Shown: positions 305 to 17,569 of the stretch, in pieces
Numbering within the stretch: the first letter of the stretch is position 1
How the letters are laid out: each line of letters begins with the position of its first letter
From: Vitreimonas sp.
GTDB lineage: Bacteria > Patescibacteriota > Microgenomatia > UBA1400 > PJMF01
Reading direction: 5' to 3'
NCBI GenBank assembly: GCA_035627515.1
Contig: DASPLQ010000012.1
Coordinates: 1,344,517-1,408,516 of the forward strand
Length of the DNA stretch: 64,000 bases
Notes under the pieces: generated by a model
What the model was told of the DNA's origin: nothing
What the model saw: only the letters and a program-made list of their open reading frames with translations
Databases searched by the model: none
Position numbers and translations under genes: made by a program

Positions 305-422
305 GAAGTAATTGAGTAATTAAGTAAGTGAGTGAGTGAATGAGAATATCGTGAGTGAGAAATAAATAATGAGCTGAGATTTGCGTACTCGCAACCGAAG
401 CGAATTATTTTTCGACACAAAC
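305..422. repeat. Left copy of a ~115-bp inverted repeat (partner at 17456-17569). It lies directly upstream of tRNA-Leu(CAG) and contains GTGAGTGA-type short tandem motifs and the hairpin TTGCGTACTCGCAA.
   Basis: Reverse complement of 17456-17569 aligns with 305-422 across the whole length. The core aataatgagctgagatttgcgtactcgcaaccgaagcgaattattttt (365-412) is identical. Confidence 0.85.
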
Positions 423-508
423 GCCGAAGTGGCGAAATGGTAGACGCGCACGCTTCAGGAGCGTGTCCCCGCAAGGGGATGGAGGTTCGAGTCCTCTCTT
501 CGGCACCA
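423..508 (+). tRNA. tRNA-Leu(CAG), long variable arm, CCA encoded
   Basis: Acceptor gccgaag/cttcggc. Anticodon loop ttCAGga. T-arm ggttcgagtcc. Long variable arm. Confidence 0.85.
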
Positions 509-537
509 GCTAATGATATAATTTAAAGCCTAGTTAA

Positions 538-621
538 GCCCAGGTGGTGAAATGGTATACACGTACGCTTGAGGTGCGTATGCCGAAAGGCGTGGAGGTT
601 CAAGTCCTCTCCTGGGCACCA
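538..621 (+). tRNA. tRNA-Leu(GAG), CCA encoded
   Basis: Acceptor gcccagg/cctgggc. Anticodon loop ttGAGgt. T-arm ggttcaagtcc. Long variable arm. Confidence 0.85.
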
Positions 622-629
622 GATATAAG

Positions 630-657
630 GCGTCTCCTTGCCAAGGAGAAGGTCGCA
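630..657 (+). other. Orphan fragment identical to the anticodon arm and variable region of tRNA-Gly(GCC) at 2450-2522, lying just 5' of tRNA-Val
   Basis: gcgtctccttgccaaggagaaggtcgc is identical to the internal segment of the Gly tRNA at 2474-2500. Confidence 0.7.
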
Positions 658-663
658 GTCTAT

Positions 664-738
664 GGCCGCTTAGTCTCAGTTGGTTAGAGCGCTCGGTTTA
701 CATCCGAGAGGTCACAGGTTCGAGCCCTGTAGCGGCCA
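664..738 (+). tRNA. tRNA-Val(TAC)
   Basis: Acceptor ggccgct/agcggcc. Anticodon loop ttTACat. T-arm aggttcgagccct. Confidence 0.85.
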
Positions 739-775
739 CGTAAAGCATTTATTCTCACAATCGGTGGACACCACA

Positions 776-810
776 AAGAGGTCACCCCGCTCAAGCGGGG
801 TAGCGGCCAC
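776..810 (+). other. Pseudo copy of the tRNA-Val 3' end, with the T-arm replaced by a perfect 6-bp/4-nt hairpin (ccccgc tcaa gcgggg)
   Basis: ggtcac-ccccgctcaagcgggg-tagcggccac compared with the genuine ggtcac-aggttcgagccct-gtagcggccac 60 bp upstream. Confidence 0.6.
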
Positions 811-817
811 ACAACAT

Positions 818-1255
818 TTAATCAATCACAAAATCTGCGCTTACATCTACTTTGCCACTTTCATTTATCATTAAGCGACAATACCAGGCTTCGGGAGCTC
901 CAGGATGTCGAGTAATAAGTAAACTTTTTCTTCGCAGTCCATCATCAATGTGTCGTTCTTCGCATTTCACAGCATGAACGCATGATGACCAATTTGTCGG
1001 TCTGGCCGGATTGCAGGATTCAAAGCAATAACCACGAATTTGTGACAAAATCATTTTAGAATAGTCCTGATCTTGGAGTGAGCGGCAACGCGTTACAAAT
1101 GCTTGCGAACCAGGGGAAAAGCGTTCAAAAATTCCAAAATAGAGAGCAGGAAATATAAAGAGCGCAAAGCCCACAAAACCAACCAAAAGATAGGTTAGAA
1201 AAGCCTGGTAAGTGAAGTAGATCTTAGATGAGTGTGACATCATAACTCCGGCCAT
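818..1255 (-). CDS. Hypothetical protein with N-terminal transmembrane anchor
   Basis: ORF with a hydrophobic N-terminal segment. No recognisable motif. Confidence 0.4.
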   Translation of the reverse strand: MAGVMMSHSSKIYFTYQAFLTYLLVGFVGFALFIFPALYFGIFERFSPGSQAFVTRCRSLQDQDYSKMILSQIRGYCFESCNPARPTNWSSCVHAVKCEERHIDDGLRRKSLLITRHPGAPEAWYCRLMINESGKVDVSADFVID

Positions 1256-1722
1256 TCTTCAGGATGCTCAAAAATAGGTGGTGTTTCTTTATAAACTGGA
1301 AAGATTTCCTTGGGCGTACTACCAGGAGGTAATGCCCAATTAGTATGCGTTGTATTTTTAGAGTAATCAGAGTGATAGTAAAAGATTGGCCAGCTTAAGG
1401 ATTGGGCTGCCATCCTAAAGCCTGAATTATCGGGTAATGGCCGGTAATGCATCTTTGTACAAAAATTTAGGTACTTTCTAGAGCAAATGATTTCATTACT
1501 GATGAGCGTTAAATCAGCCGGATACGTACCTTTTTCAGCCTTATATATCTCCACTTGTTCAGCAGCCTCTTTAAACTGTCTATATAAATCAAAGTCTCTT
1601 TGTTCAGTATCGAAAATAAAGAGGCGTAAAAAGACATTGAGGACCAAATAACCCAGTAATAATGCCAACAATAAGCCAAAAGCCATTAGAACGCGAAATA
1701 GAAGCTTTATTGGTTTTTTCAT
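1240..1722 (-). CDS. Hypothetical protein with N-terminal transmembrane anchor
   Basis: ORF with N-terminal TM helix MKKPIKLLFRVLMAFGLLLALLLGYLVL. AT-rich. Confidence 0.45.
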   Translation of the reverse strand: MKKPIKLLFRVLMAFGLLLALLLGYLVLNVFLRLFIFDTEQRDFDLYRQFKEAAEQVEIYKAEKGTYPADLTLISNEIICSRKYLNFCTKMHYRPLPDNSGFRMAAQSLSWPIFYYHSDYSKNTTHTNWALPPGSTPKEIFPVYKETPPIFEHPEEWPEL

Positions 1723-1731
1723 AATAAAACA

Positions 1732-2217
1732 CTAGTCAAAAAATTCATGAACAACTTTGGTATAGACTATCTCACCCTGAAAACAAACTAAGTACATATA
1801 ATAGGAAAAATCTCCATGTGGCCCTGCCTTCCCGTCGGCAGAGTATTTCCAACAATTTCGATCATTACCTACGCCTATACCATCTGCCAAAGGTTTGCCC
1901 AGCAAGTCTTCAACTTGGCCTTTAGTCATGTTCTTTTCAACCTTTTCAAAGTTAGTAACAGTGAAGCCAGGAGCAAAAATCGTGTCAATTTCTGGATATG
2001 GATAAAAATGTTGCTCTGAAAACAGAAAAACATGAATAATAAAAGGAGCCACGATGAAAATAATTGCTATTTGTAAAGCGATCACACCAGCAATGAGAGA
2101 TACCAACTTAGAAAAAAGTGTTTTATCTTTTCGGAAAAAAAGTCCTGCTGTTAAACTAATAGCGGCACATACTCCAAACAGTAAGAGAAAAAACCGAGTA
2201 ATTAAGAACCACGACAT
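1732..2217 (-). CDS. Hypothetical membrane protein, possibly with a BamE/SmpA-OmlA-like C-terminal domain
   Basis: Two N-terminal TM helices. MTKGQVEDLLGKPL resembles the SmpA/OmlA motif. Weak. Confidence 0.4.
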   Translation of the reverse strand: MSWFLITRFFLLLFGVCAAISLTAGLFFRKDKTLFSKLVSLIAGVIALQIAIIFIVAPFIIHVFLFSEQHFYPYPEIDTIFAPGFTVTNFEKVEKNMTKGQVEDLLGKPLADGIGVGNDRNCWKYSADGKAGPHGDFSYYMYLVCFQGEIVYTKVVHEFFD

Positions 2218-2315
2218 GAAAAATTATAGCATTTTCATCTTAGGGGAGTTAAAATCTCCTCGCACAAATCAAGATATTTTGGTTATAATAGTGATTCGTT
2301 ATTGCAAAATAACAT

Positions 2316-2391
2316 GCCAAGCTAGCCAAGTTGGTCACGGCGCATGTCTGAAAAACATGAAATTCAGGTTCGATTCCTGAGCTTGGCACCA
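2316..2391 (+). tRNA. tRNA-Phe(GAA)
   Basis: Acceptor gccaagc/gcttggc. Anticodon loop ctGAAaa. T-arm caggttcgattcctg. CCA present. Confidence 0.85.
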
Positions 2392-2449
2392 GACATTGAG
2401 AAAAATGAGATGAACGGGTACAATTGACACTTGTTCAATTAACAGAATG

Positions 2450-2522
2450 CGAGAATAGCTCAGTTGGCTAGAGCGTCTCCTTGCCAAGGAGAAGGTCGCG
2501 GGTTCGAGTCCCGTTTCTCGCT
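2450..2522 (+). tRNA. tRNA-Gly(GCC)
   Basis: Acceptor gcgagaa/ttctcgc. Anticodon loop ttGCCaa. T-arm gcgggttcgagtcccgt. Confidence 0.85.
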
Positions 2523-2526
2523 CACT

Positions 2527-2835
2527 TTAATCATCCCCATACCAGCAACCAGCTTTTTTAAGCATTTCCTTAAGCTCTAAATCAAATTTTTCTGATTCAG
2601 TTAAAACATTGGTTTTCTCTAGTGAAAAAAGATCGTAAACACTGGCATCAAGATAGTGAGCAATTTTTAAAGCCGTTAAGACTGAAGGAACCACTAAACC
2701 TTTCTCAATGTCGTAAACATTTTGCCTACTAATACCAATATGAAATGCCAAAGTTAACTGAGAGACGCCGATAGATTTGCGAAATTTGGCCACATTATTG
2801 TAAAGTTTGACAGGGTGCAGTGAGGGGTTCTTCAT
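2527..2835 (-). CDS. XRE-family helix-turn-helix transcriptional regulator
   Basis: HTH signature SQLTLAFHIGISRQNVYDIEKG. 102 aa. Confidence 0.7.
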   Translation of the reverse strand: MKNPSLHPVKLYNNVAKFRKSIGVSQLTLAFHIGISRQNVYDIEKGLVVPSVLTALKIAHYLDASVYDLFSLEKTNVLTESEKFDLELKEMLKKAGCWYGDD

Positions 2836-2844
2836 GAGAGAAAC

Positions 2845-2894
2845 GTCATTTAAAAGTTACACTTTTTATTCAAACTGTAAACTTTAGATGACAG
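2845..2894. promoter_or_regulatory. Palindromic intergenic element, copy 1 (arms TGTCATYTAAARGTTTACA, ~13-bp AT spacer), 10 bp upstream of the XRE regulator start
   Basis: GTCATTTAAAAGTTACAC...CTGTAAACTTTAGATGACAG. Same architecture at 8803-8853 and 38757-38805. Confidence 0.6.
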
Positions 2895-2924
2895 ATTCTT
2901 CCAAGGATATACCTCCAACCTTTA

Positions 2925-3578
2925 CTAAACCGTAGTACTAACCAAATCACTCATTTTAGCTGCGATAGCTTCTTCAGCAATTTCCTCAGGTTTTATTTTG
3001 CACACTTCAAAAATCTGCTTTTCAATTTGGTATAAGTATTGAGAATATTGCCGCCGCTTCATCACATCTTCTTCCAGAGAATATTTATCACCATATCGCT
3101 CCTCTAAGTCATCTAACCGTTCTTGCAAAAGCACCACTCCAGTTGGCGCCACCCGCATATCAGCATAGGCACAGATTTTTTGAGCTAAATCAGAGCTTAA
3201 AAAGTTTTCCTCAGCTTTCAAGAAACCCACTGCATCAATTAACTCATAAACTCGCAGCTCCACCCCAATCTCATCAATAATTTTCATCGTTGCATCATGA
3301 TCATTGTGACCATACTTTGCCACAAACTCTTTCTGGATTTCTTGCCAATATTCCAACTCACCAGCCGGCACAAACTCGGGAAACTTCAATAAATCAAACT
3401 TCACGATGTTACCCATGTCATGTAGTAAACAAGCTAAAATCACATGGCGGCGATCATTATCAGAAAGGGGAGTAGTTAAGGTATCTACAATCACGGCGGC
3501 CACACCTGCTACCCGTAGCTGGTGCTGCTGCAAATTAGGCATCAACCGATACTGTTGGTAAAGCTGCGCAATCGTCAT
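2925..3578 (-). CDS. HD-domain phosphohydrolase
   Basis: Conserved H...HD motif (LLHDMGN). Confidence 0.7.
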   Translation of the reverse strand: MTIAQLYQQYRLMPNLQQHQLRVAGVAAVIVDTLTTPLSDNDRRHVILACLLHDMGNIVKFDLLKFPEFVPAGELEYWQEIQKEFVAKYGHNDHDATMKIIDEIGVELRVYELIDAVGFLKAEENFLSSDLAQKICAYADMRVAPTGVVLLQERLDDLEERYGDKYSLEEDVMKRRQYSQYLYQIEKQIFEVCKIKPEEIAEEAIAAKMSDLVSTTV

Positions 3579-3598
3579 GGGGCAAGTATAACAAACTC

Positions 3599-4318
3599 TT
3601 ACTTAAAAAAGGCGCCATACCGGATAGAGCGCGAAAACTTCCGGTAAAAAGCCTCTAAAATCACGTCTCGGGCTTCATTAACTTGGAAGTACTGGGTATT
3701 TATCGTCAAGTCATATGAGTTACATTTATCAATATCCTTGCGCAAATACTGCTTCACAAAGGACCGCCGTTCTTTCTCCACTTTGGCGATCACTTCTTTA
3801 GCTTGAGCTTCATTCAATCCCTCAAAATCCATGGCCCGCTTCACTCGCCGATCGTATGGAGCTGTGATATTAATGTGCAACCCTTTAGCAAACGGACAAA
3901 TAAAGTTTGCACCTCTACCTAGAATAACTACATGTCCTTGCAAAGCGTATGCCAGCATCACCTTCACTAACTCCGTCACATACGTTAAGTCATCAATGTA
4001 CTCAGGATTAAGAATCGAGTGGACAATGTCATCAATTTTGCTGCGGCTCTTTTCATCGATAGCTTTAATGGCTGCTTTACGTTGTTTAGTCGAGTTCGCA
4101 ATTTCTTCAATCAGTTGGTCATCAACAAAAGTAAAACCTAACTTGTCTGCCACTGCTTTGGCAATGGGTGCCCCACCACTACCGGGCTCACGAGCAATGG
4201 TAATAAAGGGTCGGACAAATGAAGATTCAGCATCAGCACTATATTGATTAAAGATGCGATCTTTGATGTTGAGGGTATTAATGATTTTATTAACCAGCGG
4301 GTAATAATGTAGGGACAT
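3599..4318 (-). CDS. Cytidylate kinase-like family P-loop protein
   Basis: ITIAREPGSGGAPIAKAVADKLGF is a Walker-A-like loop typical of the cytidylate-kinase-like family. TATAAT sits 9 nt upstream of the ATG. Confidence 0.6.
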   Translation of the reverse strand: MSLHYYPLVNKIINTLNIKDRIFNQYSADAESSFVRPFITIAREPGSGGAPIAKAVADKLGFTFVDDQLIEEIANSTKQRKAAIKAIDEKSRSKIDDIVHSILNPEYIDDLTYVTELVKVMLAYALQGHVVILGRGANFICPFAKGLHINITAPYDRRVKRAMDFEGLNEAQAKEVIAKVEKERRSFVKQYLRKDIDKCNSYDLTINTQYFQVNEARDVILEAFYRKFSRSIRYGAFFK

Positions 4319-4410
4319 ACTTAATTATATCTAAGACTCCAATGAGCAGAAATTATGTACCCCAGATGATGTTATAATGTCAGAGCCTGTTAAGAGGTAT
4401 GTAAGTTTTC

Positions 4411-4484
4411 GCGTCAGTAGCTCAGTTGGATAGAGCATCTGTCTTCGGAACAGAGGGTCGGGGGTTCGAATCCCTCCTGGCGCA
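4411..4484 (+). tRNA. tRNA-Arg(TCG)
   Basis: Acceptor gcgtcag/ctggcgc. Anticodon loop ctTCGga. T-arm ggttcgaatcc. Followed by a T-run and the hairpin cttcgccttggcgaag. Confidence 0.8.
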
Positions 4485-4581
4485 CTTTTTTTACTCCTGT
4501 ACTCCAAGCCTTTCTTCGCCTTGGCGAAGCTCGCTTTATTTTGTAAACTTTTACCTTGTTACTTTTACTTGAGGAAATTAT

Positions 4582-5202
4582 ATGTACGCTGATACTGTCT
4601 ATTTATTTGGTGATCAATTTGCTCCGGCTGCCGGGATGTTGGGTTATAAAGAAACCTTGCCCAATGGCACAAAAGTTGATCAGAAGCGCTTAGCGGAACT
4701 GGTCGTCATAGCGGCTTTAGTCGAAATGAGTGAACAAGGTTACATCAAGACCTATGTAAAAGATGGGGAATTTTTGTTTTTTAAAACCCAAACTGCAGTC
4801 GTGAGCTTAGAAAAAAAACCTGCCAAGTCTTTAGGTGTATTCGAACATGCTTTACTTAGTGTATTGGATAGTGCCCAAAAAGAACTGTCTATTAACGATT
4901 TACTTCATTACCTTTTGCAACGGGACAGTTATAACCCCTGGGGTGAAGTGACTAGATTCATTAATGAAAATCTCATCAACCGAGGCATTCTAGAAAAGAC
5001 TAAAGATAAACAAATATTATTTATTAAAACCTACAAAAATGTACTGAAAGGGGAAATTCCCCAAGAAGAACAACAGCGGTTAGAAAAAGTCAAAACGGCT
5101 TTAGAACACTTTAAAAATAACGATCCTGTGCTTTATAAAAAAGTTCTTGATGGCGTCAATAATGGGATTAGCTCCCGGGTAGTGCAATCAGATAATGACT
5201 AA
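4582..5202 (+). CDS. Hypothetical protein
   Basis: 206-aa ORF. No confident family call. Confidence 0.45.
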   Translation: MYADTVYLFGDQFAPAAGMLGYKETLPNGTKVDQKRLAELVVIAALVEMSEQGYIKTYVKDGEFLFFKTQTAVVSLEKKPAKSLGVFEHALLSVLDSAQKELSINDLLHYLLQRDSYNPWGEVTRFINENLINRGILEKTKDKQILFIKTYKNVLKGEIPQEEQQRLEKVKTALEHFKNNDPVLYKKVLDGVNNGISSRVVQSDND

Positions 5203-5216
5203 GAGTATACTGAGGT

Positions 5217-5807
5217 ATGTCAACCTCTCCCTCTCAACCTACTCAACCACAATCACCACGACGCTTATTTCGCGCCCTCGAAGCTAAATCTTTGCGCTCA
5301 CGGACCGTACCGACCCAAATTGCTGATTATTTAACGAGCAAAAGTAGCACCCCTACTTTTTTGTTTTTGAACACGCTGTTATTTGCGTTTTGGATAATTT
5401 GGAACTCAGGCCTTATTCCTCAACTCAAACCCATCGATCCGTATCCCTTTGGCTTTTTGACGATGGTGGTCTCACTAGAAGCAATTGCGTTATCCATTTT
5501 TGTGTTAATTTCTCAAAATCGGGCGGCTCAAATTGCCACCTTGCGTGATGAGCTCAACTTACGCGTCAATCTGATTGCTGAACAAGAAGTGACTAAAAGT
5601 TTACAAATTTTAGCTGAGATGCGGACTAAAATGGGCATTAAAACTCCTGATCCTGAGCTTGAGGAAATGTTGCAAGATATTAATGCCTCTGACCTTGAGC
5701 ACTCGATCGCGGCTCAGTTAGTGAGAGCGGACCAAACGGTCATTACCAAACTGACCAAAAAAGACGTTCCTAACCTAATTAACTCGCTCCTGAATGTGCG
5801 GCGGTAA
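5217..5807 (+). CDS. Hypothetical membrane protein (two TM helices; possibly DUF1003-like)
   Basis: Two hydrophobic helices (FLFLNTLLFAFWIIW; LTMVVSLEAIALSIFVLI) followed by a coiled C-terminal region. Confidence 0.45.
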   Translation: MSTSPSQPTQPQSPRRLFRALEAKSLRSRTVPTQIADYLTSKSSTPTFLFLNTLLFAFWIIWNSGLIPQLKPIDPYPFGFLTMVVSLEAIALSIFVLISQNRAAQIATLRDELNLRVNLIAEQEVTKSLQILAEMRTKMGIKTPDPELEEMLQDINASDLEHSIAAQLVRADQTVITKLTKKDVPNLINSLLNVRR

Positions 5808-5816
5808 ACTCCTAGC

Positions 5817-5847
5817 TTGACTTTGCCCTTACTGGAATGTTTATAGT
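5817..5847 (+). promoter_or_regulatory. Sigma70-like promoter with a 19-bp spacer (TTGACT-N19-TATAGT), the hallmark of MerR-regulated promoters; dyad TAGTACaattcGTACTA overlaps the -10 box and transcription start
   Basis: TTGACT at 5817-5822, TATAGT at 5842-5847, ATG at 5860, giving a near-leaderless mRNA. Confidence 0.55.
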
Positions 5848-5859
5848 ACAATTCGTACT

Positions 5860-6282
5860 ATGAAACACTTAACTGTCAGCCAACTAGGAAAAGCTATTGG
5901 TGTCACACCCAAAACCATTCGCTTTTATGAATCTGAAGGCTTAATCACGCCTACAAAGCGGGCCGAGAATGGTTATCGTTTGTATGATGAATCGCTGGTT
6001 GAGGAACTTCAGTTAATTAAACAAGCTCGAGATTTAGGTTTGCCCCTCAAAGAAATTAAAACCTTACTAGCAGGTTGCCAAGGTGAAAGTTGCGATCACA
6101 CTAAAAAATATGTGCAGGGTGAAATTGATGACTACTTGGTCAAACTGAGCGCCAAAATTGACCAACTTCTTAATTTGCAGGCAAAATTACAACAACTCCG
6201 GACCCAGCTGGACAGCAATCCTCAATTTTGTGAGGGGGGAAAGTATTGTTGTAATATTTTGCATCAATTATCAAAAGTCTAG
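5860..6282 (+). CDS. MerR-family transcriptional regulator with Cys-rich C-terminus (probable metal sensor)
   Basis: N-terminal MerR HTH (LTVSQLGKAIGVTPKTIRFYESEGLITP...GYRLYDE). C-terminal Cys cluster (GCQGESCDH...KYCCN). Confidence 0.8.
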   Translation: MKHLTVSQLGKAIGVTPKTIRFYESEGLITPTKRAENGYRLYDESLVEELQLIKQARDLGLPLKEIKTLLAGCQGESCDHTKKYVQGEIDDYLVKLSAKIDQLLNLQAKLQQLRTQLDSNPQFCEGGKYCCNILHQLSKV

Positions 6283-6298
6283 AAAGGAGGTGAGAAAT

Positions 6299-6343
6299 AT
6301 GAATTCCAACGAAACGTGTTGCGGCGGCGGTTGCCAATGCTAA
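6299..6343 (+). CDS. 14-aa Cys-rich micro-protein MNSNETCCGGGCQC (putative metal-binding peptide)
   Basis: ATG at 6299 preceded by a strong SD (aaaggaggtga, 7-nt spacing). Five Cys in 14 residues. Followed by hairpin terminator ccatcatgtgcgcgccatgatgg at 6371-6393. Co-directional and contiguous with the merR-like gene. Confidence 0.55.
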   Translation: MNSNETCCGGGCQC

Positions 6344-6370
6344 GTATTAAACATTAATACACCAACACAA

Positions 6371-6400
6371 CCATCATGTGCGCGCCATGATGGTTTATCT
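6371..6400 (+). terminator. Putative intrinsic terminator after the merR/micro-ORF unit
   Basis: 8-bp perfect stem ccatcatg/catgatgg followed by tttatct. Confidence 0.45.
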
Positions 6401-6452
6401 CCCTCTACTTGATCGCATAAGTATCTGATATATAATTTAGTTATAGGATTAT

Positions 6453-7454: not shown

Positions 7455-7461
7455 ATTAAGT

Positions 7462-7896
7462 ATGGAAAGAAGTCATAACCTCCCAATAGATGAACTCCAA
7501 CGAAGAGCTGGCAGTGCTAACCGTGGATTTAATGACACAATTATCAAGCCACAAGCTTTTAGAATTGGTTTGAGTCAATCTAATCCAGAGTTCCTACCAC
7601 CGAAAAAAAAAGTCATTATTTTTCCAAGACAACAGAACTTTGCACAAATTAATACACAGACTGCGACTGAAACACTCCTGCTTCCAGCCACAACCTCACG
7701 CATCAAATCACGACGAGATCGTACTGCTTCACCTGTTTCCGAGCTTAATGACGTGGTAGAAGCGATTAATACACGCGTCCAAAAAGAAAACCAACCGCTA
7801 GCCGACGATGTAAGTGCTGAAACCTTAATGGTCCAAGCCCTACAAAAAATCTTATCGAGCAAATCACAAGCCAAAGCTCCAACTAAACTTGTTTAG
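7462..7896 (+). CDS. Hypothetical protein (start trimmed to the first non-overlapping ATG)
   Basis: ORF 7393-7896 overlaps the previous gene. ATG at 7462 (MERSHNLPIDEL...) removes the overlap. Ser/Thr/Pro-rich low complexity. Confidence 0.35.
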   Translation: MERSHNLPIDELQRRAGSANRGFNDTIIKPQAFRIGLSQSNPEFLPPKKKVIIFPRQQNFAQINTQTATETLLLPATTSRIKSRRDRTASPVSELNDVVEAINTRVQKENQPLADDVSAETLMVQALQKILSSKSQAKAPTKLV

Positions 7897-8802: not shown

Positions 8803-8853
8803 TGTCATTTAAAGTTTACATTTTTAATTTAATATGTAACATCTAGATGACAG
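8803..8853. promoter_or_regulatory. Palindromic intergenic element, copy 2, in the divergent promoter region between the alpha/beta hydrolase and GNAT genes
   Basis: TGTCATTTAAAGTTTACA-N14-TGTAACATCTAGATGACAG. Confidence 0.6.
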
Positions 8854-10412: not shown

Positions 10413-12137
10413 CTCTTTATACGTCCCTTTTTTGATTAAGCGACCTTTTTCAAAGTGGTAAATATAATCGGTGTTCTTGAGTGTTGAGGTGCGGTGAGCA
10501 ATGGCGATAATCGTCACCCCTTTGAGTTCTTTTTCGATGGCCGCATGAATTTTTTCTTCAGTGGCTGTATCAAGATGCGATGTGGCTTCATCTAAGATCA
10601 AGATTTGGCTTTGTTTACAGATAGCCCGAGCCAAAGCAATTCGCTGGCGCTCACCTCCAGAAACTCGATACCCACGCTCACCAATTAACGTCTCTAAACC
10701 CTCAGGAAGCTTGCTAATTAATTTAGCTAGTTGGGCAATTTTAATGGCTTTGAGCAAAATTTCCTCAGGGATGTTTTTCATCGAGGTGATATTTTCCCGG
10801 AGACTAAAATTAAACATCTCTGATTCTTGCGGCACTACGGTCACGTGGGTAGTGAGTTCATCGTGAGAAATGTCACTAAGATTGCGCTTACCAATCAAAA
10901 TGTGACCTCGGGTAGGAGTATATAAACCTAAAAGTAACTTAGCCAATGTCGATTTGCCGCTTCCAGAACTTCCTACAATACCCACCTGATCACCGCGCTT
11001 AATTATGAGATTAATATCGCTTAAGGTAGCTTCGTGTTGGTACTTAAAATCCAAGTTTTTAAGCTCGATGCTTTGCCACTCAGCTGGGAAAGCTAGGGTA
11101 CCTTGGCGAGCGTCAAGGTCAGTCCAAAACAGTGGCATCATTCTACTCACCATCAATCTCATTCTGACTAAGCGCTCAAAGTATCCTGTCATGTCATTTA
11201 TGGCTTTACGAATATCATTAAAGTAACTGTAAAAAATAAACACCGAACCTAAGGACACTCTGCCAGCTAAAACATCACTCCCAAGCATATACAAAAAAAT
11301 GGTCGATACTACGGCAGTATCAACTTGAAAAAACTTCCACTTATAAATATTGAGTGCGGAGATCTCTTGGTTGTAAGCTCTTAACAGAGCTTCAGCTGAG
11401 GCGACTTTCCCCTGCAGTGATTTGCCCATTCCTAAGCTTTTAATTGATAAAATGTTTGACAACCCTTCATAGTATTTCCCTGAAGCATTCTCGCGAGCCA
11501 TATTGAATTCTTCATATTTATTATTAATGCGGTTATAAAAGAATTTCTCAATCAGAAAAAAGACCATCGCATAGACTCCGATCAATACAAAATACTTAAG
11601 ATCAAAAATAAAAAAGACTACCGTCACTCCGATCAGCGTGGATAGCAAATCGTAGAGTTTCTCTTGTAATAAAGCTAAAAAATCGCTCACCCCATTCGCC
11701 CCAGCCTCAATCCGCTGCACTTTATTCCCGGTATTTTCTTTCTCGTGCCAAGTCAAAGAAAAATCCAGCAATTTTTGAAACCCAGAAACTTTAATGCGGT
11801 ACACAATATCCAGTGTCAAGATTTCCATCTGATTTTTGGCTGATAAGCGAATGATGCTGATCACCCCCCAACTGACGCCAAATAAGCCCACCCATAAGTA
11901 AAAAGGTTGTAGAGACATGCCCGGACGATAAACAGTCAAAAAATCAACCATTCGTCCCAAAATAAATGGCGGCAACAAGGGATAGAAAAAAACACAGAAC
12001 AATACTATGTTCCAAAAAATGAATCGGTTTCTGATTGGTTGGGCAAAAAACCAAATCGAGCGTAAAAGATGCCACCAGGAAAAAGTACTTTTTTCTCCAG
12101 CCGTTTCTGCTAACTTCTCAAATTTCTGTCGCTTCAT
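10401..12137 (-). CDS. ABC transporter, fused permease/ATP-binding protein (exporter type)
   Basis: Six N-terminal TM helices. Walker A GSSGSGKST, signature LSGGERQRIALARA, Walker B ILILDEAT. Start set at MKRQKF... (rc ATG 12135-12137) with TATAAT 8 nt upstream. Confidence 0.8.
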   Translation of the reverse strand: MKRQKFEKLAETAGEKSTFSWWHLLRSIWFFAQPIRNRFIFWNIVLFCVFFYPLLPPFILGRMVDFLTVYRPGMSLQPFYLWVGLFGVSWGVISIIRLSAKNQMEILTLDIVYRIKVSGFQKLLDFSLTWHEKENTGNKVQRIEAGANGVSDFLALLQEKLYDLLSTLIGVTVVFFIFDLKYFVLIGVYAMVFFLIEKFFYNRINNKYEEFNMARENASGKYYEGLSNILSIKSLGMGKSLQGKVASAEALLRAYNQEISALNIYKWKFFQVDTAVVSTIFLYMLGSDVLAGRVSLGSVFIFYSYFNDIRKAINDMTGYFERLVRMRLMVSRMMPLFWTDLDARQGTLAFPAEWQSIELKNLDFKYQHEATLSDINLIIKRGDQVGIVGSSGSGKSTLAKLLLGLYTPTRGHILIGKRNLSDISHDELTTHVTVVPQESEMFNFSLRENITSMKNIPEEILLKAIKIAQLAKLISKLPEGLETLIGERGYRVSGGERQRIALARAICKQSQILILDEATSHLDTATEEKIHAAIEKELKGVTIIAIAHRTSTLKNTDYIYHFEKGRLIKKGTYKELFD

Positions 12138-12195
12138 AGCAGTGATTATACAGGCCAATTAACATTCTTCAGTTCAAATGAAAAACCTTCGATAG

Positions 12196-12768
12196 CTACC
12201 TAAGTACTTCTTCTAGCAACTCAGGGAATTCATTAGTGTTCATTTGGAAAAATAAGAAGTGTTGTTTATTTTCCAATCTCACCACACGCGGTTTAAGGGC
12301 TTGATTGTATAAATCAAAAGCTTTCATCATGTGAGGTAAATCGTTAGAAATAAAAATCACTATCTCATTGGCTAAATGAGGAACCTCTCTGGGCAACTCA
12401 AAGTCATATAAATCTTTTCTGCTATCATCGTCAGTTTCCGGCACACGGGCTGGAGCTACTAAAATTAATTTATGGATTTTTCTACCGGTGTCTAATAACC
12501 ACCGCACAATAAAAGCCCCTCCACAGCTATGCCCAACCACCACCGTTTTTTCAGTCACAGGGTATTTCTCAAACTCTTTTTTCCACTCCACATATTTGGG
12601 GTTCCAGGAAACCGGCATATCTAACGCCGTAGCATCTAAACCCTTTTCTTGGAGCTTATCTGCTAACCAATTCATCCACCGTTTCTCTTTCGGCATTAAC
12701 ATCGCCTCACTAGGAGGACAACCGTGAAGAACATAGTATTTGTCGGGGATGGTTTTTGGGAAGTTCAT
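12196..12768 (-). CDS. Alpha/beta-fold serine hydrolase, YdeN/RBBP9-like
   Basis: VVVGHSCGG nucleophile motif. ~190 aa, matching the YdeN family size. Start trimmed to MNFPK with an AGGA 9 nt upstream. Confidence 0.6.
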   Translation of the reverse strand: MNFPKTIPDKYYVLHGCPPSEAMLMPKEKRWMNWLADKLQEKGLDATALDMPVSWNPKYVEWKKEFEKYPVTEKTVVVGHSCGGAFIVRWLLDTGRKIHKLILVAPARVPETDDDSRKDLYDFELPREVPHLANEIVIFISNDLPHMMKAFDLYNQALKPRVVRLENKQHFLFFQMNTNEFPELLEEVLR

Positions 12769-12778
12769 AATTGAAATC

Positions 12779-13258
12779 CTAGTCGTGATTAATAGTTCCA
12801 CCTATAGCTCTGTGAAAAAAAACCACTTTGCCTTGATAAAGTATTTCTTCATAGCCTGAAAAGTTAGTAATATCGCCTTCTTGTCGGTAGCGGTATTCCC
12901 AGTTACCGGCTTTGTAGTTTTGAGGACCTCTCAGAGATCGAAATGTATCATCGTCTTGAGACAAAGCAGTTTTGAGAAAACTAAATGTATCATGAGCCAG
13001 CTGCTCATTTCCTTCAGTCATGCCTCCACAGTATGAGTTGGTCCAAACAATTTTTCCTTGAAACCTAACCACTTCTTGCCCCGCTGATTTTGTATGGCCA
13101 GTATAACTATCAAGATAGTCCCAATCTCCCTGCTTAAAATCAAACTCAATAAAATCTCTGCGCTCACTCGTTTTTAATGGTGGTTTACCACTCGCATATG
13201 TTGATTTTCCAGCCAGGTCAACAAAATCAAATAACTGAGAGGTGAAGTTGGTGTTCAT
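12779..13258 (-). CDS. Hypothetical protein
   Basis: 159-aa ORF. No recognisable motif. Confidence 0.4.
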   Translation of the reverse strand: MNTNFTSQLFDFVDLAGKSTYASGKPPLKTSERRDFIEFDFKQGDWDYLDSYTGHTKSAGQEVVRFQGKIVWTNSYCGGMTEGNEQLAHDTFSFLKTALSQDDDTFRSLRGPQNYKAGNWEYRYRQEGDITNFSGYEEILYQGKVVFFHRAIGGTINHD

Positions 13259-13296
13259 AAAGTGAGTTTAACACAGATGAAGTGATTGGAGAGAAT

Positions 13297-13644
13297 TTAT
13301 TTGTTCTGAAACCGGATGAAGTAAAACTCGCTTACATCATCAGACTTGTTTTCTATTTCGTGCTCAGTATCTGCAGGAAAAATAAACCGATCTCCAGATT
13401 GATAAACTTCTTCTTTACCAAAGGCATCTCTTATTACTCCTTCACCTTTAATAACAACACAAATCTCAACAATGTTAGCGTGTTTGTGCATTGTCCATTT
13501 TTCTGAAGCAGGCAGATAGCCGTAGGTGAAGGCCTCAAAATAAATAGATAAGGTCTCATCTTTTGATACTAAAAGTTTTCGAGAACCGGTCGCGTGTGGA
13601 GTTTCTTCTATTGGAATGTCTTGAATGTTTTTTTTGGAGAACAT
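13297..13644 (-). CDS. Cupin-domain protein
   Basis: Cupin motifs (G.RFIFPADTEHEIEN; HKHANIVEICVVIKGEG). Confidence 0.6.
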   Translation of the reverse strand: MFSKKNIQDIPIEETPHATGSRKLLVSKDETLSIYFEAFTYGYLPASEKWTMHKHANIVEICVVIKGEGVIRDAFGKEEVYQSGDRFIFPADTEHEIENKSDDVSEFYFIRFQNK

Positions 13645-13707
13645 GAGCTCATTTTAACAGCACGTTACAGTTAAATGAAAGTCTGATTGCGATATATTTA
13701 TATCTTG

Positions 13708-13781
13708 TGAGTCGGGTGGGACTCGAACCCACGACATTCTGCTTAAGAGGCAGACGCTCTAACCGACTGAGCTACCGACCC
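13708..13781 (-). tRNA. tRNA-Lys(CTT)
   Basis: Reverse-complement reads gggtcggtagctcagtcggttagagcgtctgcctCTTaagcagaatgtcgtgggttcgagtcccacccgactca. Acceptor gggtcgg/ccgactc (one GU). Confidence 0.85.
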
Positions 13782-13805
13782 TCACATTCATAACTTTTTA
13801 TTAAC

Positions 13806-13870
13806 GAGCATTCTGCTTAAGAGTCCGTCAGCTGACGGATCTAACCGACTGACCCGCCAGCCGGCGGGCT
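13806..13870 (-). other. tRNA-Lys-derived pseudo-element: 5' half of the adjacent tRNA-Lys, with two arms replaced by perfect 6-bp/4-nt hairpins (tccgtc agct gacgga; cccgcc ggct ggcggg); lacks a T-arm
   Basis: Shares attctgcttaagag, tctaaccgactga and ctcacattc with the tRNA-Lys 24 bp away. Confidence 0.6.
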
Positions 13871-13948
13871 CACATTCCGTAAGACTGATTATTTTAGCAC
13901 AAACTTGAGTAGAAATTGGGAGAAATTAAGGTGTTACAATCATTAGAG

Positions 13949-14476
13949 ATGCAAGAGATTACTTTAGAGGTCAATCTAAAAACTATCCCCCCCGTGATTA
14001 AACGTCGTCGCCAAGTATTAATTGTCCTGAAAAATGCTGAAGGTAATTATATTTTGGGTCATAAAAATCATTACCCACCGGGGGTATCAAGATTTGTGGG
14101 TGGGGGAATGGAAGAAGGGGAAGAGCCATTGCATGCCGCAGTCCGCGAACTTCATGAAGAAACAGGCATTTTGGCCGATGAAAACCACTTACGGCCACTC
14201 AGAAAGGTGGTAGTAGTAGCTACCACTCCTGACCAGCTACAAACCCACTTTGAAGTGTATTTATTTGCCTACCAACTCAACGATGAAACGCTTAAAGCCA
14301 GCGATGATTTAGATAACGTCGTGGAGTTGACGCCGGATTTAACCACTAAATTAATCGATACCTTTGATAACTTAAACGCTGACATTCACCCAGCTCTTAA
14401 CTTTTCTTGGCAAGATTATGGCAAAGTATATGGCCACATTCATCAGCTGGGCTTTGAGTTGACGCAAAAAAATTAA
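13949..14476 (+). CDS. NUDIX hydrolase
   Basis: Nudix box GGGMEEGEEPLHAAVRELHEETGI. ATG at 13949 has TACAAT 8 nt upstream; the track start at 13916 is a TTG. Confidence 0.7.
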   Translation: MQEITLEVNLKTIPPVIKRRRQVLIVLKNAEGNYILGHKNHYPPGVSRFVGGGMEEGEEPLHAAVRELHEETGILADENHLRPLRKVVVVATTPDQLQTHFEVYLFAYQLNDETLKASDDLDNVVELTPDLTTKLIDTFDNLNADIHPALNFSWQDYGKVYGHIHQLGFELTQKN

Positions 14477-14549
14477 CTTTTTATTAATTTTCCAGATGTG
14501 CACTCAGCGCTCATTGCTGTAGAGCTTTGTTTCAGTCTACAATCAACTC

Positions 14550-15407
14550 ATGATCCAGCTGATCGACCAAAATCAGTTTAGTGCTGAGTTCGCTCTCCAC
14601 AAGAAATATGCTCAATCAGAGCTGTTATTGGATTTGGTGTGGACACACTCGCACATCATCATGAGTGTCTCGCTTAATTTGTATGACTCAGGCCGCTTTG
14701 ATGTCACTCAAATGCCCCGCGAATTAGTCTCTAAAGCGGCTTTACTACATGATATCGGTGTCTATGGATGCTCAGGTTTTGAGTGGTTACCAGGCCAACC
14801 TCTCTCAGATAAACCGTATGCGCAACATACCCTAATCGGCGCTGAGATTCTTCAGCGAGAAGGTTTCTCGCAAGAAATTATTGATGTGGCCAAAATTCAC
14901 ACCGGAGTCGGGCTCAGCTCCGAAGACATCACTACCTATGGCATGGAGTTGCCAGCCGGTGAGTACATGCCATCGACGCCGCTCCAGTGGTTGATTACCT
15001 ATGCATCTAAATTTCATAGCAAAGCACCGCGCTTCAAAACCGCTACCGATATTGAAGTCGCCCTCTCTAAATACGGCACTGATAAAGTGGAGCGCTTCAA
15101 GCAATTGCAAGCTACTTTTGGTTTACCTAATTTAGAGGATATTAAGCCTCGCTATGAAGAGTGGCACAAAAACTTTAATTTCCGCATCACACAGTTAGCT
15201 AATGGCTCTGCCGGAAATGCTGCAGCATTACCTAATGTGCCCGTCGAGCTGAGTTCCGCTGGCATTAGTCTTTCTAAGCCTAAAGCGGTCACCGTCCAAA
15301 TTACACCTCTAGAAATTGAAACTCCGACCGCTACCGCTACGACCGCCAACTCGGCGCCCATGACCTTAGCTACGAACCAGACCGGGCCCGTTGCACGGCT
15401 TTCTTAA
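14550..15407 (+). CDS. HD-domain hydrolase with low-complexity Ala/Thr/Pro-rich C-terminal tail
   Basis: LLHDIGV motif. TACAAT 7 nt upstream of the ATG. Confidence 0.6.
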   Translation: MIQLIDQNQFSAEFALHKKYAQSELLLDLVWTHSHIIMSVSLNLYDSGRFDVTQMPRELVSKAALLHDIGVYGCSGFEWLPGQPLSDKPYAQHTLIGAEILQREGFSQEIIDVAKIHTGVGLSSEDITTYGMELPAGEYMPSTPLQWLITYASKFHSKAPRFKTATDIEVALSKYGTDKVERFKQLQATFGLPNLEDIKPRYEEWHKNFNFRITQLANGSAGNAAALPNVPVELSSAGISLSKPKAVTVQITPLEIETPTATATTANSAPMTLATNQTGPVARLS

Positions 15408-16368
15408 ACGCTAAATACTGGACTGTCGGTTGATTATTGCGGTCTAAAAAGGTGAAGTTACTAAACGGACCAGGATCGCCACGCAATAAGAATGGTGTCA
15501 CCGCGATCACTTGCGGATGTGACCAGACATGTTGCAAAGCATACAAGTAATACTCTTCTAGCCAACGTGAGGTTTGGCGATTAGCTATCCACCCCGTTTC
15601 TGTAATCATAACTTGTAAATCACGCCCTGTCTTATCTTTGATAAATTTTAATTCGTGTTCAAAACCACGCAACGAGTTCTGAGCAGTTCGTTCCGGTGAC
15701 GAGCTAAAGCCAGGATTAGGGTAAGAATGTGAGTTCCACACATCTATCTTATGAAAAATATCTGGGTTATAGGCGTGCATGCGATTTAAGTAGGTAAAGG
15801 CTTCCATGGTTTCTGTCCCATTCGGAGCTGCTAAGTCCATAGCAGCAGGCAAGACCACAAAGTTTTTACCTTCTGCATGAGCCCAATCGGCAGCAAAACT
15901 TAAAATGTCGGCATACTCTTCAGGGTTGATGGTACCACCCCATTCCTTAGCGTGATTAACTTCATTGAACATTACGACGTGACGTTGATCAGTGGGCCAG
16001 TCTTGTTTCTTCAAAAACGTCATCAACAACACAATTTCTTTGCGATTGGGCACTTTCCAAGCTCCATTTTCAAATCGGGAGGTCAGCCGGACGATGGGAA
16101 TAATCTTTTTTTCTTTGGCTGCATTTAAAAAGCCTTGCCATTCATCTTTTTTATCCAAATCATTCAAACTTAAAGGAATTGTCACATACTGCCACTCATC
16201 TGGCTTGGCCTCATCAGTGATTAATTTTTTGGCATCATCAATTTCATAAGGGTGGAGAATATGGACACCTAACACATCGCCCGAAGCAGCGGATACTAGA
16301 GTAGGGAAACTCAAAAAGCTCGTTATAACGAGCAAACCTAAAATGAGTGATTTAAAGCCCCATTTCAT
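15370..16368 (-). CDS. Secreted glycoside hydrolase, GH5-like (cellulase/mannanase superfamily)
   Basis: Signal peptide (LLVITSFLSFPTLVSAAS). NE-type acid/base motif (MFNEVNH). Nucleophile motif ITETGW, as in GH5 clan A. Confidence 0.6.
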   Translation of the reverse strand: MKWGFKSLILGLLVITSFLSFPTLVSAASGDVLGVHILHPYEIDDAKKLITDEAKPDEWQYVTIPLSLNDLDKKDEWQGFLNAAKEKKIIPIVRLTSRFENGAWKVPNRKEIVLLMTFLKKQDWPTDQRHVVMFNEVNHAKEWGGTINPEEYADILSFAADWAHAEGKNFVVLPAAMDLAAPNGTETMEAFTYLNRMHAYNPDIFHKIDVWNSHSYPNPGFSSSPERTAQNSLRGFEHELKFIKDKTGRDLQVMITETGWIANRQTSRWLEEYYLYALQHVWSHPQVIAVTPFLLRGDPGPFSNFTFLDRNNQPTVQYLAFKKAVQRARSGS

Positions 16369-16417
16369 AATTATAGGATATCATTTTTTAAGGCATTTGT
16401 CGAGGTTTGGATACAGA

Positions 16418-17158
16418 ATGAAGAGTTTGGTATACTTAACAGAAATGAAACGTTTATTTCTGGCTTACGCCTGGATGTTACTGACTGCAGGCGCGATGTT
16501 AACCTTAATTGCGGCTGTCCAGGTGTACGGTTTTCATACCCAAGTTACTACCCAAGCCAAGATACTTCATCCTGTCTTAACCGCTAGTGCTCAAGAACTG
16601 GACTCTACAGACGAAATAGGGGAGGTGAAAGGGATGGCAATTGTGGCTGAAGTGGATGATGCTCGACCTCAAATTGTGGCTAATTTCCTCAAGCGCTATA
16701 AATCACCACTTGAACCCCACGATTACTTTGGTCAATTTTTAGTTGATACAGCAGATAAAAATGGTCTTGATTTTCGCCTGCTTCCGGCGATTGCCATGCA
16801 AGAAAGTAACTTGTGTAAAAAAATCCCTGAAGGTAGCTATAACTGTCTTGGCTTCGGCATTCACTCTAGAGGTACCTTAGCATTCGAGAGTTATGAAGCA
16901 AACTTTGAGCGCGCCGCTCGCGAGCTGAAAAAGAACTATATTGATATTGGTTTAACCACTCCAGATCTGATCATGAAAAAATACACTCCCGGCAGTAATG
17001 GCAGCTGGTCTAACTCCGTGAAACAATGGATGGCAGAAATGCGCTATGATGACCGCAAATTAGGCAAAGCCCTGAAAACAGACACCAGTGTCCTCGAGTT
17101 CGCCGAAAGTTCTGAAAGTACTTCCTCTGCTTCACCAGCTCCCTCTTCCACACCTTAG
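16418..17158 (+). CDS. Membrane-anchored lytic transglycosylase-like (SLT-domain) protein
   Basis: N-terminal TM. LLPAIAMQESNL resembles the SLT catalytic E-S motif. Start trimmed to avoid overlap with the divergent gene. Confidence 0.5.
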   Translation: MKSLVYLTEMKRLFLAYAWMLLTAGAMLTLIAAVQVYGFHTQVTTQAKILHPVLTASAQELDSTDEIGEVKGMAIVAEVDDARPQIVANFLKRYKSPLEPHDYFGQFLVDTADKNGLDFRLLPAIAMQESNLCKKIPEGSYNCLGFGIHSRGTLAFESYEANFERAARELKKNYIDIGLTTPDLIMKKYTPGSNGSWSNSVKQWMAEMRYDDRKLGKALKTDTSVLEFAESSESTSSASPAPSSTP

Positions 17159-17221
17159 CCTGGTAATTCAGCTAGCTAAAGCTTAACTTCAAGCAATTGA
17201 ACTGATGTATTTTGATAACTA

Positions 17222-17250
17222 TTGACAGACTTATAATATTTTGATATAGT
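17222..17250 (+). promoter_or_regulatory. Near-consensus sigma70 promoter (TTGACA-N17-TATAGT) driving the candidate sRNA
   Basis: TTGACA at 17222-17227; TATAGT at 17245-17250. Confidence 0.6.
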
Positions 17251-17257
17251 TTGATTA

Positions 17258-17366
17258 CCTCAGAAGGTCTCCCTCACCGGGTTGAAAGCCTTACTTCGGT
17301 AAGGTGTGAACGGCAGTACGTTCTGAGTAAAATAGCCCTCCGAGCTCAGCTCGGGGGGCTTTTTGT
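17258..17366 (+). ncRNA. Candidate small structured RNA (~110 nt), unknown family
   Basis: Predicted transcription start ~7 nt after the -10 box. Closing stem ctcagaa/ttctgag encloses a UUCG-capped hairpin ccttacttcggtaagg. Ends in an intrinsic terminator gccctccgagctcagctcggggggc + ttttt (17334-17366). No ORF with RBS. Confidence 0.5.
17334..17366. terminator. Bidirectional intrinsic terminator shared by the sRNA (+) and tRNA-Leu(TAG) (-)
   Basis: GC-rich palindrome with a T-run on the plus strand and a weaker A/T run on the minus strand. Confidence 0.6.
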
Positions 17367-17455
17367 TGGTGCCGAGAACAGGAATCGAACCTGCACGCCT
17401 TTTGAAGGGCACTGGATTCTAAGTCCAGCCTGTCTACCAATTTCAGCATCTCGGC
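17367..17455 (-). tRNA. tRNA-Leu(TAG), CCA encoded
   Basis: Reverse-complement reads gccgagatgctgaaattggtagacaggctggactTAGaatccag...ggttcgattcctgttctcggcacca. Long variable arm. Confidence 0.85.
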
Positions 17456-17569
17456 GTTTGTGCTGAAAAATAATTCGCTTCGGTTGCGAGTACGCAAATC
17501 TCAGCTCATTATTTTTCTTCACTCACATTATTTCTCACTCACTTAGTTACTCGCTCAATCAATTACTTC
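17456..17569. repeat. Right copy of the ~115-bp inverted repeat (partner 305-422), directly upstream, in gene orientation, of tRNA-Leu(TAG)
   Basis: See the left copy; the 48-bp core is identical. Confidence 0.85.

Follow-up and report, generated by a model that had tools for sequence, protein, structure and literature searches.

In a 64-kb stretch of DNA from contig DASPLQ010000012.1 (hereafter the window, with positions counted from its first letter), an inverted repeat of about 115 nucleotides (nt) brackets a 17-kb segment, and each copy directly abuts the 5′ end of a different tRNA-Leu gene. We propose that this repeat is probably a transcribed 5′ leader module common to the two tRNA-Leu units, and that it is neither a promoter nor the end of a mobile or invertible element. 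The proposal is based on comparisons of sequence. Its main value is a correction, because an inverted repeat around a tRNA-rich 17-kb segment would here mark a small, non-reciprocal copy of a leader and not an invertible or mobile island. The phenomenon itself, in which non-coding sequence is copied ectopically from one stable-RNA gene to another, is ordinary, and this is a new instance. What is mildly unusual is that a long, structured tRNA leader is common to different isoacceptor genes.

According to our model, transcription would start at −10 boxes just outside the two copies (TGGTAAAAT at 277-285 and AGGTAAAAT at 17582-17574). The first part of the leader would be a C-poor, purine-rich stretch of tandem motifs, and the second part an imperfect hairpin with an A-rich 5′ arm paired to a U-rich 3′ arm. 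About 9 nt would separate the hairpin from the 5′ end of the mature tRNA, which is the predicted RNase P cut point. We propose that the tRNA-Leu(TAG) locus is the home of the module or of its ancestor and that non-reciprocal copying (ectopic gene conversion or templated insertion) placed the module between a retained ancestral promoter and tRNA-Leu(CAG). The slippage-prone outer half would then have diverged fast. The core would have remained identical for one of two reasons: the hairpin is constrained, or the copying event or a conversion patch is of recent date. The hairpin may play a role in processing, stability, pausing or attenuation.

The repeat copies and the tRNA genes that follow them are listed below; all four tRNA genes were found by both ARAGORN and Rfam.

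305..364, + strand: left copy, outer half; purine-rich and almost C-free, with tandem motifs AGTAATTG and AGTG (period 8 and period 4 arrays by TRF)
365..413, + strand: left copy, perfect core; hairpin body, exact match to 17465-17513
414..422, + strand: end of the left leader; last 9 nt GACACAAAC, from the hairpin to the tRNA 5′ end; the right copy differs only in GA versus AG
423-508, + strand: tRNA-Leu(CAG), abutting the left copy
538-621, + strand: tRNA-Leu(GAG), in the left-copy unit
664-739, + strand: tRNA-Val(TAC), in the left-copy unit
17367..17455, − strand: tRNA-Leu(TAG), abutting the right copy
17456..17569, − strand: right leader copy; core 17465-17513 with hairpin, outer tandem-motif half 17514-17569

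A sequence-only reading of this DNA had described a repeat of about 115 bp next to two inward-facing tRNA-Leu genes with divergent bodies. Self-comparison of the window agrees, except that the perfect core is 49 nt long, not 48 (365-413 is the reverse complement of 17465-17513). The two occurrences of this core in the window compare with 0.00 expected from 100 shuffles. Identity extends at 92% over arms of 75 nt (364-438 and 17440-17514), and weaker outer arms (305-339 and 17535-17569) are 80% identical with insertions and deletions. The outer half of the repeat consists of short tandem units, with a period of 4 or 8 in the left copy and of 16 in the right copy, and the core contains a palindrome, TTGCGTACTCGCAA, at 381-394 and 17484-17497. 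The edge between identical and diverged sequence is sharp at the repeat copies. The bodies of tRNA-Leu(CAG), which heads the Leu(CAG)-Leu(GAG)-Val transcription unit (423..739, + strand), and of tRNA-Leu(TAG) are 73% identical.

Independent short reads support the repeat. In the Logan assembly of run SRR7003767, contigs stop within the core at window positions 17485 and 17494. By our own calculation, a true 49-nt repeat forces a 31-mer graph to break at just these points, if Logan uses k = 31 as we assume. Thus, at least two copies with different flanks are present in the reads. The breaks carry no information on the orientation of the segment, as any 49-nt repeat yields them. The element had no further copy in the window, and searches with blastn and nhmmer found none in 89 related loci (L001-L089); a 22-mer from the core, TTGCGTACTCGCAACCGAAGCG, had no matches in collections of genome contigs and metagenome contigs, both of which are without the source genome or any carrier of the element. 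The repeat matched no Rfam family at or near the gathering score. In a permissive search, the sole overlap was with a snoRNA model (E 2.3), far under the gathering score.

Putative promoters outside the repeat

To describe promoters we used the 150 nt upstream of 42 tRNA-Leu genes, made up of 40 tRNA-Leu(TAG) genes from relatives and the TAG and CAG genes of the window. The motif [G/T]TAnAAT was present in 37 of the 42 regions, compared with a background of 0.10 per 150 nt, and it mostly appears as TGTAAAAT(A) or TGTACAAT(A). From these regions we obtain an empirical consensus for tRNA promoters, (T)G(T/G)TA(A/C/T)AAT, in a Patescibacteria clade that has been little studied. The distance from the −10 box to the tRNA ranged from 8 to 137 nt; it was 8-64 nt in most relatives and 118-137 nt in the window. 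The boxes around the two copies are as follows.

277..285, + strand: TGGTAAAAT, putative extended −10 box for the Leu(CAG)-Leu(GAG)-Val unit; lies upstream of the left copy by 19 nt and of the tRNA by 137 nt
296..301, − strand: TATAAT, −10 box of the divergent gene Mpg, 7 nt before its ATG (288-286); leaderless-type layout, outside the repeat
17574..17582, − strand: AGGTAAAAT, putative tRNA-Leu(TAG) promoter; lies upstream of the right copy by 4 nt and of the tRNA by 118 nt
17603..17608, + strand: TAGTAT, −10 box 8 nt before the ATG (17617) of the divergent YgjP/SprT-like gene; outside the repeat

Both putative tRNA promoters have counterparts in relatives. Two of these relatives share the locus with the window: JGI contig Ga0613823_000014 (which supplies loci L003 and L007) and contig JAXOUH010051265.1 of GCA_034680565.1 (L006 and L009). 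The left box aligns with CATGGTAAAAT (L007), CGTGGTAGAAT (L009) and CATGATAGAAT (L090), which lie upstream of orthologous tRNA-Leu(CAG) genes. At the right box, the window, L003 and L006 have the identical 10-mer GGTAAAATAC, in the same place relative to the start of the divergent gene. A scan with a consensus promoter also selected TAAAAT ending at 17574, and reported no promoter inside 305-422 or 17456-17569. As the conserved −10 boxes sit just outside both copies, the repeat is most likely a transcribed 5′ leader. Most simply, it fills the gap between promoter and tRNA, forming a putative leader of about 111 nt for tRNA-Leu(TAG) and about 130 nt for tRNA-Leu(CAG). The left tRNA box also overlaps codons 2-4 of Mpg on the opposite strand, so that the divergent promoters overlap.

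The sequence-only reading had suggested a shared promoter as one option, and had noted that the same element at all tRNA-Leu loci of related genomes would mark a conserved promoter. Neither idea was supported, because the clade-wide −10 box is outside both copies and the relatives' tRNA-Leu loci lack the element. A narrower version is that the core itself is an internal promoter of both tRNA-Leu units that selection has kept identical, with the palindrome as its operator. The candidates would be TTGCGT (381-386) as a −35 box with TATTTT (406-411) as a −10 box, or AATAAT (365-370) as a −10 box. There is some support for it: perfect identity begins exactly at AATAAT, which matches TATAAT at five of six positions, TTGCGT and TATTTT match at four of six each, and loci L028 and L035 have TATAATAATGAGCT, a true −10 box followed by the same AATGAGCT. 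However, the pair TTGCGT and TATTTT needs a spacer of 19 nt where the criterion was 16-18 nt, neither candidate fits the motif found in the 37 upstream regions, and the promoter scan selected the outer position and nothing in the core. Relatives lack such sequences near their tRNA-Leu genes and yet conserve the outer −10 box. Furthermore, a promoter does not need 49 consecutive identical bases, and hairpins of relatives at the position of the palindrome differ in sequence, which points to a structure and not to a protein site. We therefore consider an internal promoter unlikely.

The window and its relatives also contain −10-like hexamers 6-8 nt before the start codons of protein genes. In the window these have the form TATAAT-N7-ATG and TAGTAT-N8-ATG; TAAGAT-N6-ATG is conserved in L003 and L006, and the TAAGAT motif recurs in many other relatives (L011 and others). 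This suggests that leaderless mRNAs are widespread in the clade. Literature searches found nothing specific on promoters of Patescibacteria or on shared tRNA leaders.

Predicted fold and probable origin of the proposed leader

The 5′ half of the leader is purine-rich, nearly free of C, and contains many stop codons. The 3′ half, which contains the perfect core, is predicted to fold as an imperfect hairpin between an A-rich 5′ arm and a U-rich 3′ arm. In the left copy this hairpin is closed by AAUAAU/AUUAUU, has a top stem UUGCG/CGCAA at 381-394, is followed by U5, and ends about 9 nt before position +1 of the tRNA. The predicted folding energy is −13.5 kcal/mol for 360-422 in the left copy (z −3.0) and −19.2 kcal/mol for 17456-17518 in the right copy (z −4.8). 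When the full precursor of the right copy was folded, the hairpin formed a separate domain beside an intact cloverleaf, with 9 unpaired nt before +1. In the left-copy precursor, an alternative pairing of the GUGAGUG repeats with ACUCGC in the hairpin top is slightly favoured as the minimum-energy fold.

A hairpin is present at the same position in the tRNA-Leu(TAG) leaders of L003 and L006, which are about 85 nt long. The lower stems are AAAAGAUGG/CCAUCUUUU or AAAGUUGG/CCAACUUU in L003 and L006, compared with AAAAAUAAU/AUUAUUUUU in the window, and a U run follows the relatives' hairpins, 7-9 nt before the tRNA. Five inner stem pairs differ on both sides among the three loci and still pair. As pairing is kept despite the changed sequence, the hairpin is better explained as a nucleic-acid structure than as a palindrome that binds a protein. 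We also considered the palindrome as a common repressor site for the two divergent repair-type genes, and rejected this because there is a single weak extra match in 64 kb and the relatives' hairpins differ there. A leader peptide was ruled out by stop codons in all frames of the leader and by the lack of an open reading frame (ORF) kept in L003 or L006.

What might the hairpin do? It could be a leaky, possibly bidirectional intrinsic terminator that attenuates tRNA-Leu transcription or blocks antisense read-through into Mpg and YgjP; in the attenuator version, the GUGAGU repeats would supply the alternative pairing. This is a proposal about function and is compatible with the leader explanation. 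A U-rich run comes after the hairpin on either strand (sense U5, antisense AUUAUUU(A/U)UU), and the form of the hairpin (A-tract, stem, U-tract) is seen again in L003 and L006 and is shared by the true terminators of these genomes. The alternative fold of the left copy is also in keeping with an attenuator. Against this, a terminator scan passed over the hairpin at all three loci (the window, L003 and L006), and the window's stem is all A-U beside the U run, which is unfavourable for termination. No U run follows the hairpins of other relatives with long leaders, and the alternative fold was predicted in one of the two copies only. Termination by the hairpin is thus a doubtful reading. More doubtful by a clear step is a cis-regulatory attenuator dedicated to tRNA-Leu, in which the GUGAGU motifs and the 5′ arm of the hairpin would compete for ACUCGC/CGCAA and switch the leader between a terminator-like and a read-through fold. 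If it were true, copying of the module would have placed three Leu isoacceptors and tRNA-Val under one control, and the hairpin leader would rank among the few examples of tRNA genes under attenuation-type control.

Comparison with relatives suggests where the module came from. The −10 boxes of tRNA-Leu(CAG) end about 21, 27 and 90 nt before the tRNA in L007, L009 and L090, respectively, and the leaders that follow are unrelated to the repeat. Window sequence CGTGGTAAAATCATATGCTTGATTATAAGCGAAGTA (274-309) aligns with the tRNA-Leu(CAG) promoter and short leader of L009, CGTGGTAGAATCATACATCGATTATATCGAGTACAT, which abuts the tRNA. This alignment covers the left box and about 25 nt after it; L007 and L090 align at the box. 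As the left box and the bases that follow match the promoter and leader of L009, the repeat looks as though it was inserted downstream of the ancestral promoter. The left copy has an ancestral-looking promoter and the first bases of a leader, then the module, and the right copy starts directly after its promoter. The end of both window copies, AAAC|GCC, resembles that of the tRNA-Leu(TAG) leaders in L003 (GAAAC|GCC) and L006 (CGAAC|GCC), and not that of the relatives' tRNA-Leu(CAG) leaders. Because CAG leaders in relatives are short or unrelated and TAG leaders are long and carry a hairpin, the direction of copying would be from TAG to CAG. We are fairly confident that a non-reciprocal copy ran this way in this lineage.

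These comparisons support the suggestion of a recently copied module or gene conversion, which fits best of those made from the sequence alone: the element is absent upstream of tRNA-Leu(CAG) in three relatives and the tRNA bodies are unconverted. The CAG body of the window is 90-93% identical to those of relatives, and the TAG body is 91-96% identical to those of L018, L021, L034 and L047. The bodies escaped conversion, each being 90-96% identical to its orthologues elsewhere. The contrast between the core and the outer half also needs an explanation, as 49 matches in 49 positions under a uniform divergence of 20% would have a probability of about 2e-5 by our own arithmetic. The outer half is made of tandem motifs, which accounts for 80% identity beside a perfect core. 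The difference would follow if that half changed by slippage and the hairpin was kept identical by constraint or by a recent conversion patch.

Several points weigh against the leader explanation and the proposed origin. Transcription start sites were placed by motifs alone, and the core does contain weak promoter-like hexamers (AATAAT at 365-370 and TTGCGT-N19-TATTTT). The covariation in the stem was read by eye and comes from three lineages only. MAFFT and RNAalifold gave no consensus hairpin for four leader sequences, which are few and highly divergent. Local alignment against shuffles found no significant sequence similarity between the leader of the window and those of L003 and L006, so that the homology of the TAG leaders has to be argued from position and architecture. 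The tRNA-Leu(TAG) genes of L003 and L006 are themselves of a different sequence type, 65-66% identical to that of the window, which weakens simple orthology of the locus. Lastly, it is possible that a third copy, the actual donor, lies elsewhere in the 1.41-Mb genome, of which 64 kb were searched.

The proposed leader can be compared with known systems. Like the 5′ leaders of bacterial tRNA precursors that RNase P removes, it is a non-coding sequence between a −10-like box and the mature 5′ end, with a short unpaired stretch just ahead of +1. Unlike the usual leader, it is long (the 118-137 nt of the window against the 8-64 nt of most relatives), structured, and duplicated between two non-identical isoacceptor genes, and we know it from its sequence only. 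It also resembles the concerted evolution, or ectopic gene conversion, of rrn leaders and promoters, where near-identical upstream non-coding sequence is present at dispersed stable-RNA genes and has a sharp boundary. It differs in that the genes themselves are only 73% identical and unconverted, only two copies were seen, and the sharing is not found in relatives. In Escherichia coli, 3′ETS(leuZ) reportedly is a sponge of small RNAs that derives from a tRNA spacer, a 3′ spacer with demonstrated small RNA partners and Hfq. By analogy, the window element would likewise be a spacer of a tRNA-Leu-containing precursor with a possible function of its own; it differs in lying on the 5′ side.

Other tRNA loci show signs of small-scale change. 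The syntenic slot of tRNA-Leu(TAG) holds at least three sequence types in the clade, and the type in the window is nearer to those of distant relatives than to those of its closest relatives at the protein level. On our reading of the sequences, the TAG bodies of the L003/L006 type resemble Leu(GAG) and Leu(CAG) types, hinting at replacement of the tRNA gene or remoulding of its anticodon. In the spacer between tRNA-Leu(GAG) and tRNA-Val, window positions 630-656 repeat, without a mismatch, 27 nt of tRNA-Gly(GCC) (2473-2499) that span its anticodon arm and variable region; this copy resembles a relic of a tRNA gene or a small templated insertion. The tRNA-Lys(CTT) locus (window 13782-13899, − strand) has a leader of about 109 nt downstream of an extended −10 box, TGCTAAAAT (13899-13891), and this leader holds a degenerate 5′ half of tRNA-Lys at about 13853-13803; in L003, about 45 nt separate tRNA-Lys from the next gene. 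In view of the Gly fragment, the Lys half and the varied TAG types, small-scale recombination among tRNA loci seems to be recurrent in this group. Together with the Leu leader, the Gly and Lys copies suggest that tRNA leaders and spacers of this genome grew by small templated copies.

Orientation of the 17-kb segment

All eight tRNA genes of the window fall between the two repeat copies, and the sequence-only reading had proposed that the repeat is a substrate for inversion of the segment, to be checked by synteny in related genomes. When we made this comparison, window positions 1-21.7 kb were collinear in gene order and strand with both relatives named above, all eight tRNA genes included. 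The conserved backbone begins with tRNA-Leu(CAG), Leu(GAG), Val, Phe and Gly, an HD protein, a cytidylate-kinase-like protein, tRNA-Arg and DUF1003, and continues with tRNA-Lys, NUDIX, HD, a glycoside hydrolase (GH)-like protein, a hypothetical protein, tRNA-Leu(TAG), YgjP, holA and PMM. Mpg and DUF5680 were matched on the JGI contig only. Proteins shared with the two relatives are 45-77% identical, with the exception of one NUDIX protein at 40-44%. As order and strand are the same in two relatives, the 17-kb segment is ancestral chromosome in its ancestral orientation. The GC skew is −0.050 inside the segment and −0.054 outside.

The view of the segment as enriched in accessory genes is thus half right. 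Lineage-variable genes are interspersed between the backbone genes (MerR, ABC, hydrolases and a cupin in the window; M56, DsbA and HAD in the relatives), but the backbone is conserved and syntenic. Two gene calls within the segment also changed. A supposed small RNA gene drew no support from Rfam, which found only the eight tRNAs, and a supposed GH5 glycosidase amounts to a weak PF11790 (Glyco_hydro_cc) match seen in its orthologues.

Other loci added little to the synteny. Homologues of Mpg are uninformative, being about 70% identical across unrelated phyla and mostly fragments. The closest relative of YgjP, P0002 (67%), is on a 1.8-kb contig that ends before the tRNA, and L092 likewise reaches no tRNA-Leu. 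A metagenome scan with the cytidylate-kinase-like protein gave no confirmed loci.

Could the repeats nevertheless drive flip-flop inversion of the segment by homologous recombination, and thereby maintain the identity of the core? The arms are inverted, with 49 bp perfect and 75 bp at 92%, and exceed the minimum of about 25 bp for RecA-dependent exchange in E. coli. Exchange within the core would keep every gene intact, and the orientation is beyond the resolution of short-read assemblies. On the other side, the segment has the orientation seen in both relatives, from Mpg (on the JGI contig) to PMM, with the eight tRNAs in the same order at a protein identity of 45-77%, and the GC skew is undisturbed. 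A repeat of this length is very short for efficient homologous recombination, and the contig breaks, being those that a 31-mer graph gives for any 49-nt repeat, are uninformative. Pfam identified no recombinase, invertase, integrase or transposase among the 27 ORFs of at least 95 aa examined in 1-21.7 kb. Thus, of the hallmarks of an inverton, the flanking inverted repeats are present and an invertase or recombinase gene was not found in or beside the segment. Inverted repeats also bracket a chromosomal segment in inversions mediated by rrn, insertion sequences or tRNA genes and in site-specific invertons; here they differ in having arms of 49-75 bp, no detected recombinase, an orientation conserved in relatives and an even GC skew. 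We conclude that such inversion, with maintenance of the core by it, is very unlikely, and that the repeat's potential as an inversion substrate probably has little biological importance. It is possible that a 49-75-bp inverted repeat acts as a low-efficiency RecA substrate that flips rarely; occasional flip-flop of the eight-tRNA segment is less likely than a dedicated attenuator.

Although a ~115-bp inverted repeat brackets a gene-variable segment, a mobile element is effectively refuted, whether as a composite transposon with the copies as its terminal inverted repeats or as two insertions like miniature inverted-repeat transposable elements: there is no target-site duplication (...TATAAGC before the left arm and CAGTATT... 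after the right arm), no transposase or integrase among the ORFs scanned, no further copy in the window or L001-L089, and the segment between the arms keeps its synteny with relatives in which the repeat is absent.

Neighbouring genes and other observations

The two leader units are flanked by divergent protein genes.

288 to 1, − strand: Mpg, left flank (Pfam PF02245, E 2e-41)
17617-18294, + strand: YgjP/SprT-like gene, right flank (Pfam PF01863, E 4e-52)

The neighbourhood of tRNA-Leu(TAG) is widely shared, as the gene lies within 3 kb upstream of YgjP and divergent from it in about 40 species-level genomes or loci of Patescibacteria. The order tRNA-Leu(CAG)-Leu(GAG)-Val is also present in L007 and L009. 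L090 has the three genes in the same order, but tRNA-Val is about 4.6 kb past Leu(GAG).

In three relatives, a gene for an RNA-binding protein with an RRM_1 domain lies about 0.1-1.1 kb upstream of tRNA-Leu(CAG) (L007 17118-17552, L009 13436-13882 and L090 10453-10854). It adjoins the tRNA in L009 and L090, and none is visible there in the window, where Mpg abuts the leader.

On the other side of tRNA-Leu(TAG), a strong hairpin (17334-17360), rich in G+C and accompanied by an A-tract and a T-tract, lies between this gene (− strand) and a convergent hypothetical gene (16343-17158, + strand). It is likely to be a bidirectional terminator, and it contains the 8-mer GAGCTGAG that is also present in the leader core.

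The relatives are Patescibacteria of Paceibacterota, Pacebacteria or Woesebacteria type. The source metagenome-assembled genome is labelled ‘Vitreimonas sp.’, and many of the Patescibacteria relatives (L011-L014, L049 and others) are labelled ‘uncultured Pseudomonadales bacterium’; these are likely to be taxonomic mislabels.

Finally, the segment contains an internally palindromic element of about 47 nt (GTCATTTAAA.GTT.ACA ... TGTAA.C.T.TAGATGAC) that occurs twice, at 2846-2892 and 8805-8851, and one copy is directly upstream of an Xre-type helix-turn-helix gene (2527-2835). The half-site TGTAAACTTT, a 10-mer that is not enriched by itself, recurs at intergenic positions 4542-4551 and 5596-5605. 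The elements and half-sites are possibly a candidate operator set of the Xre-type regulator.

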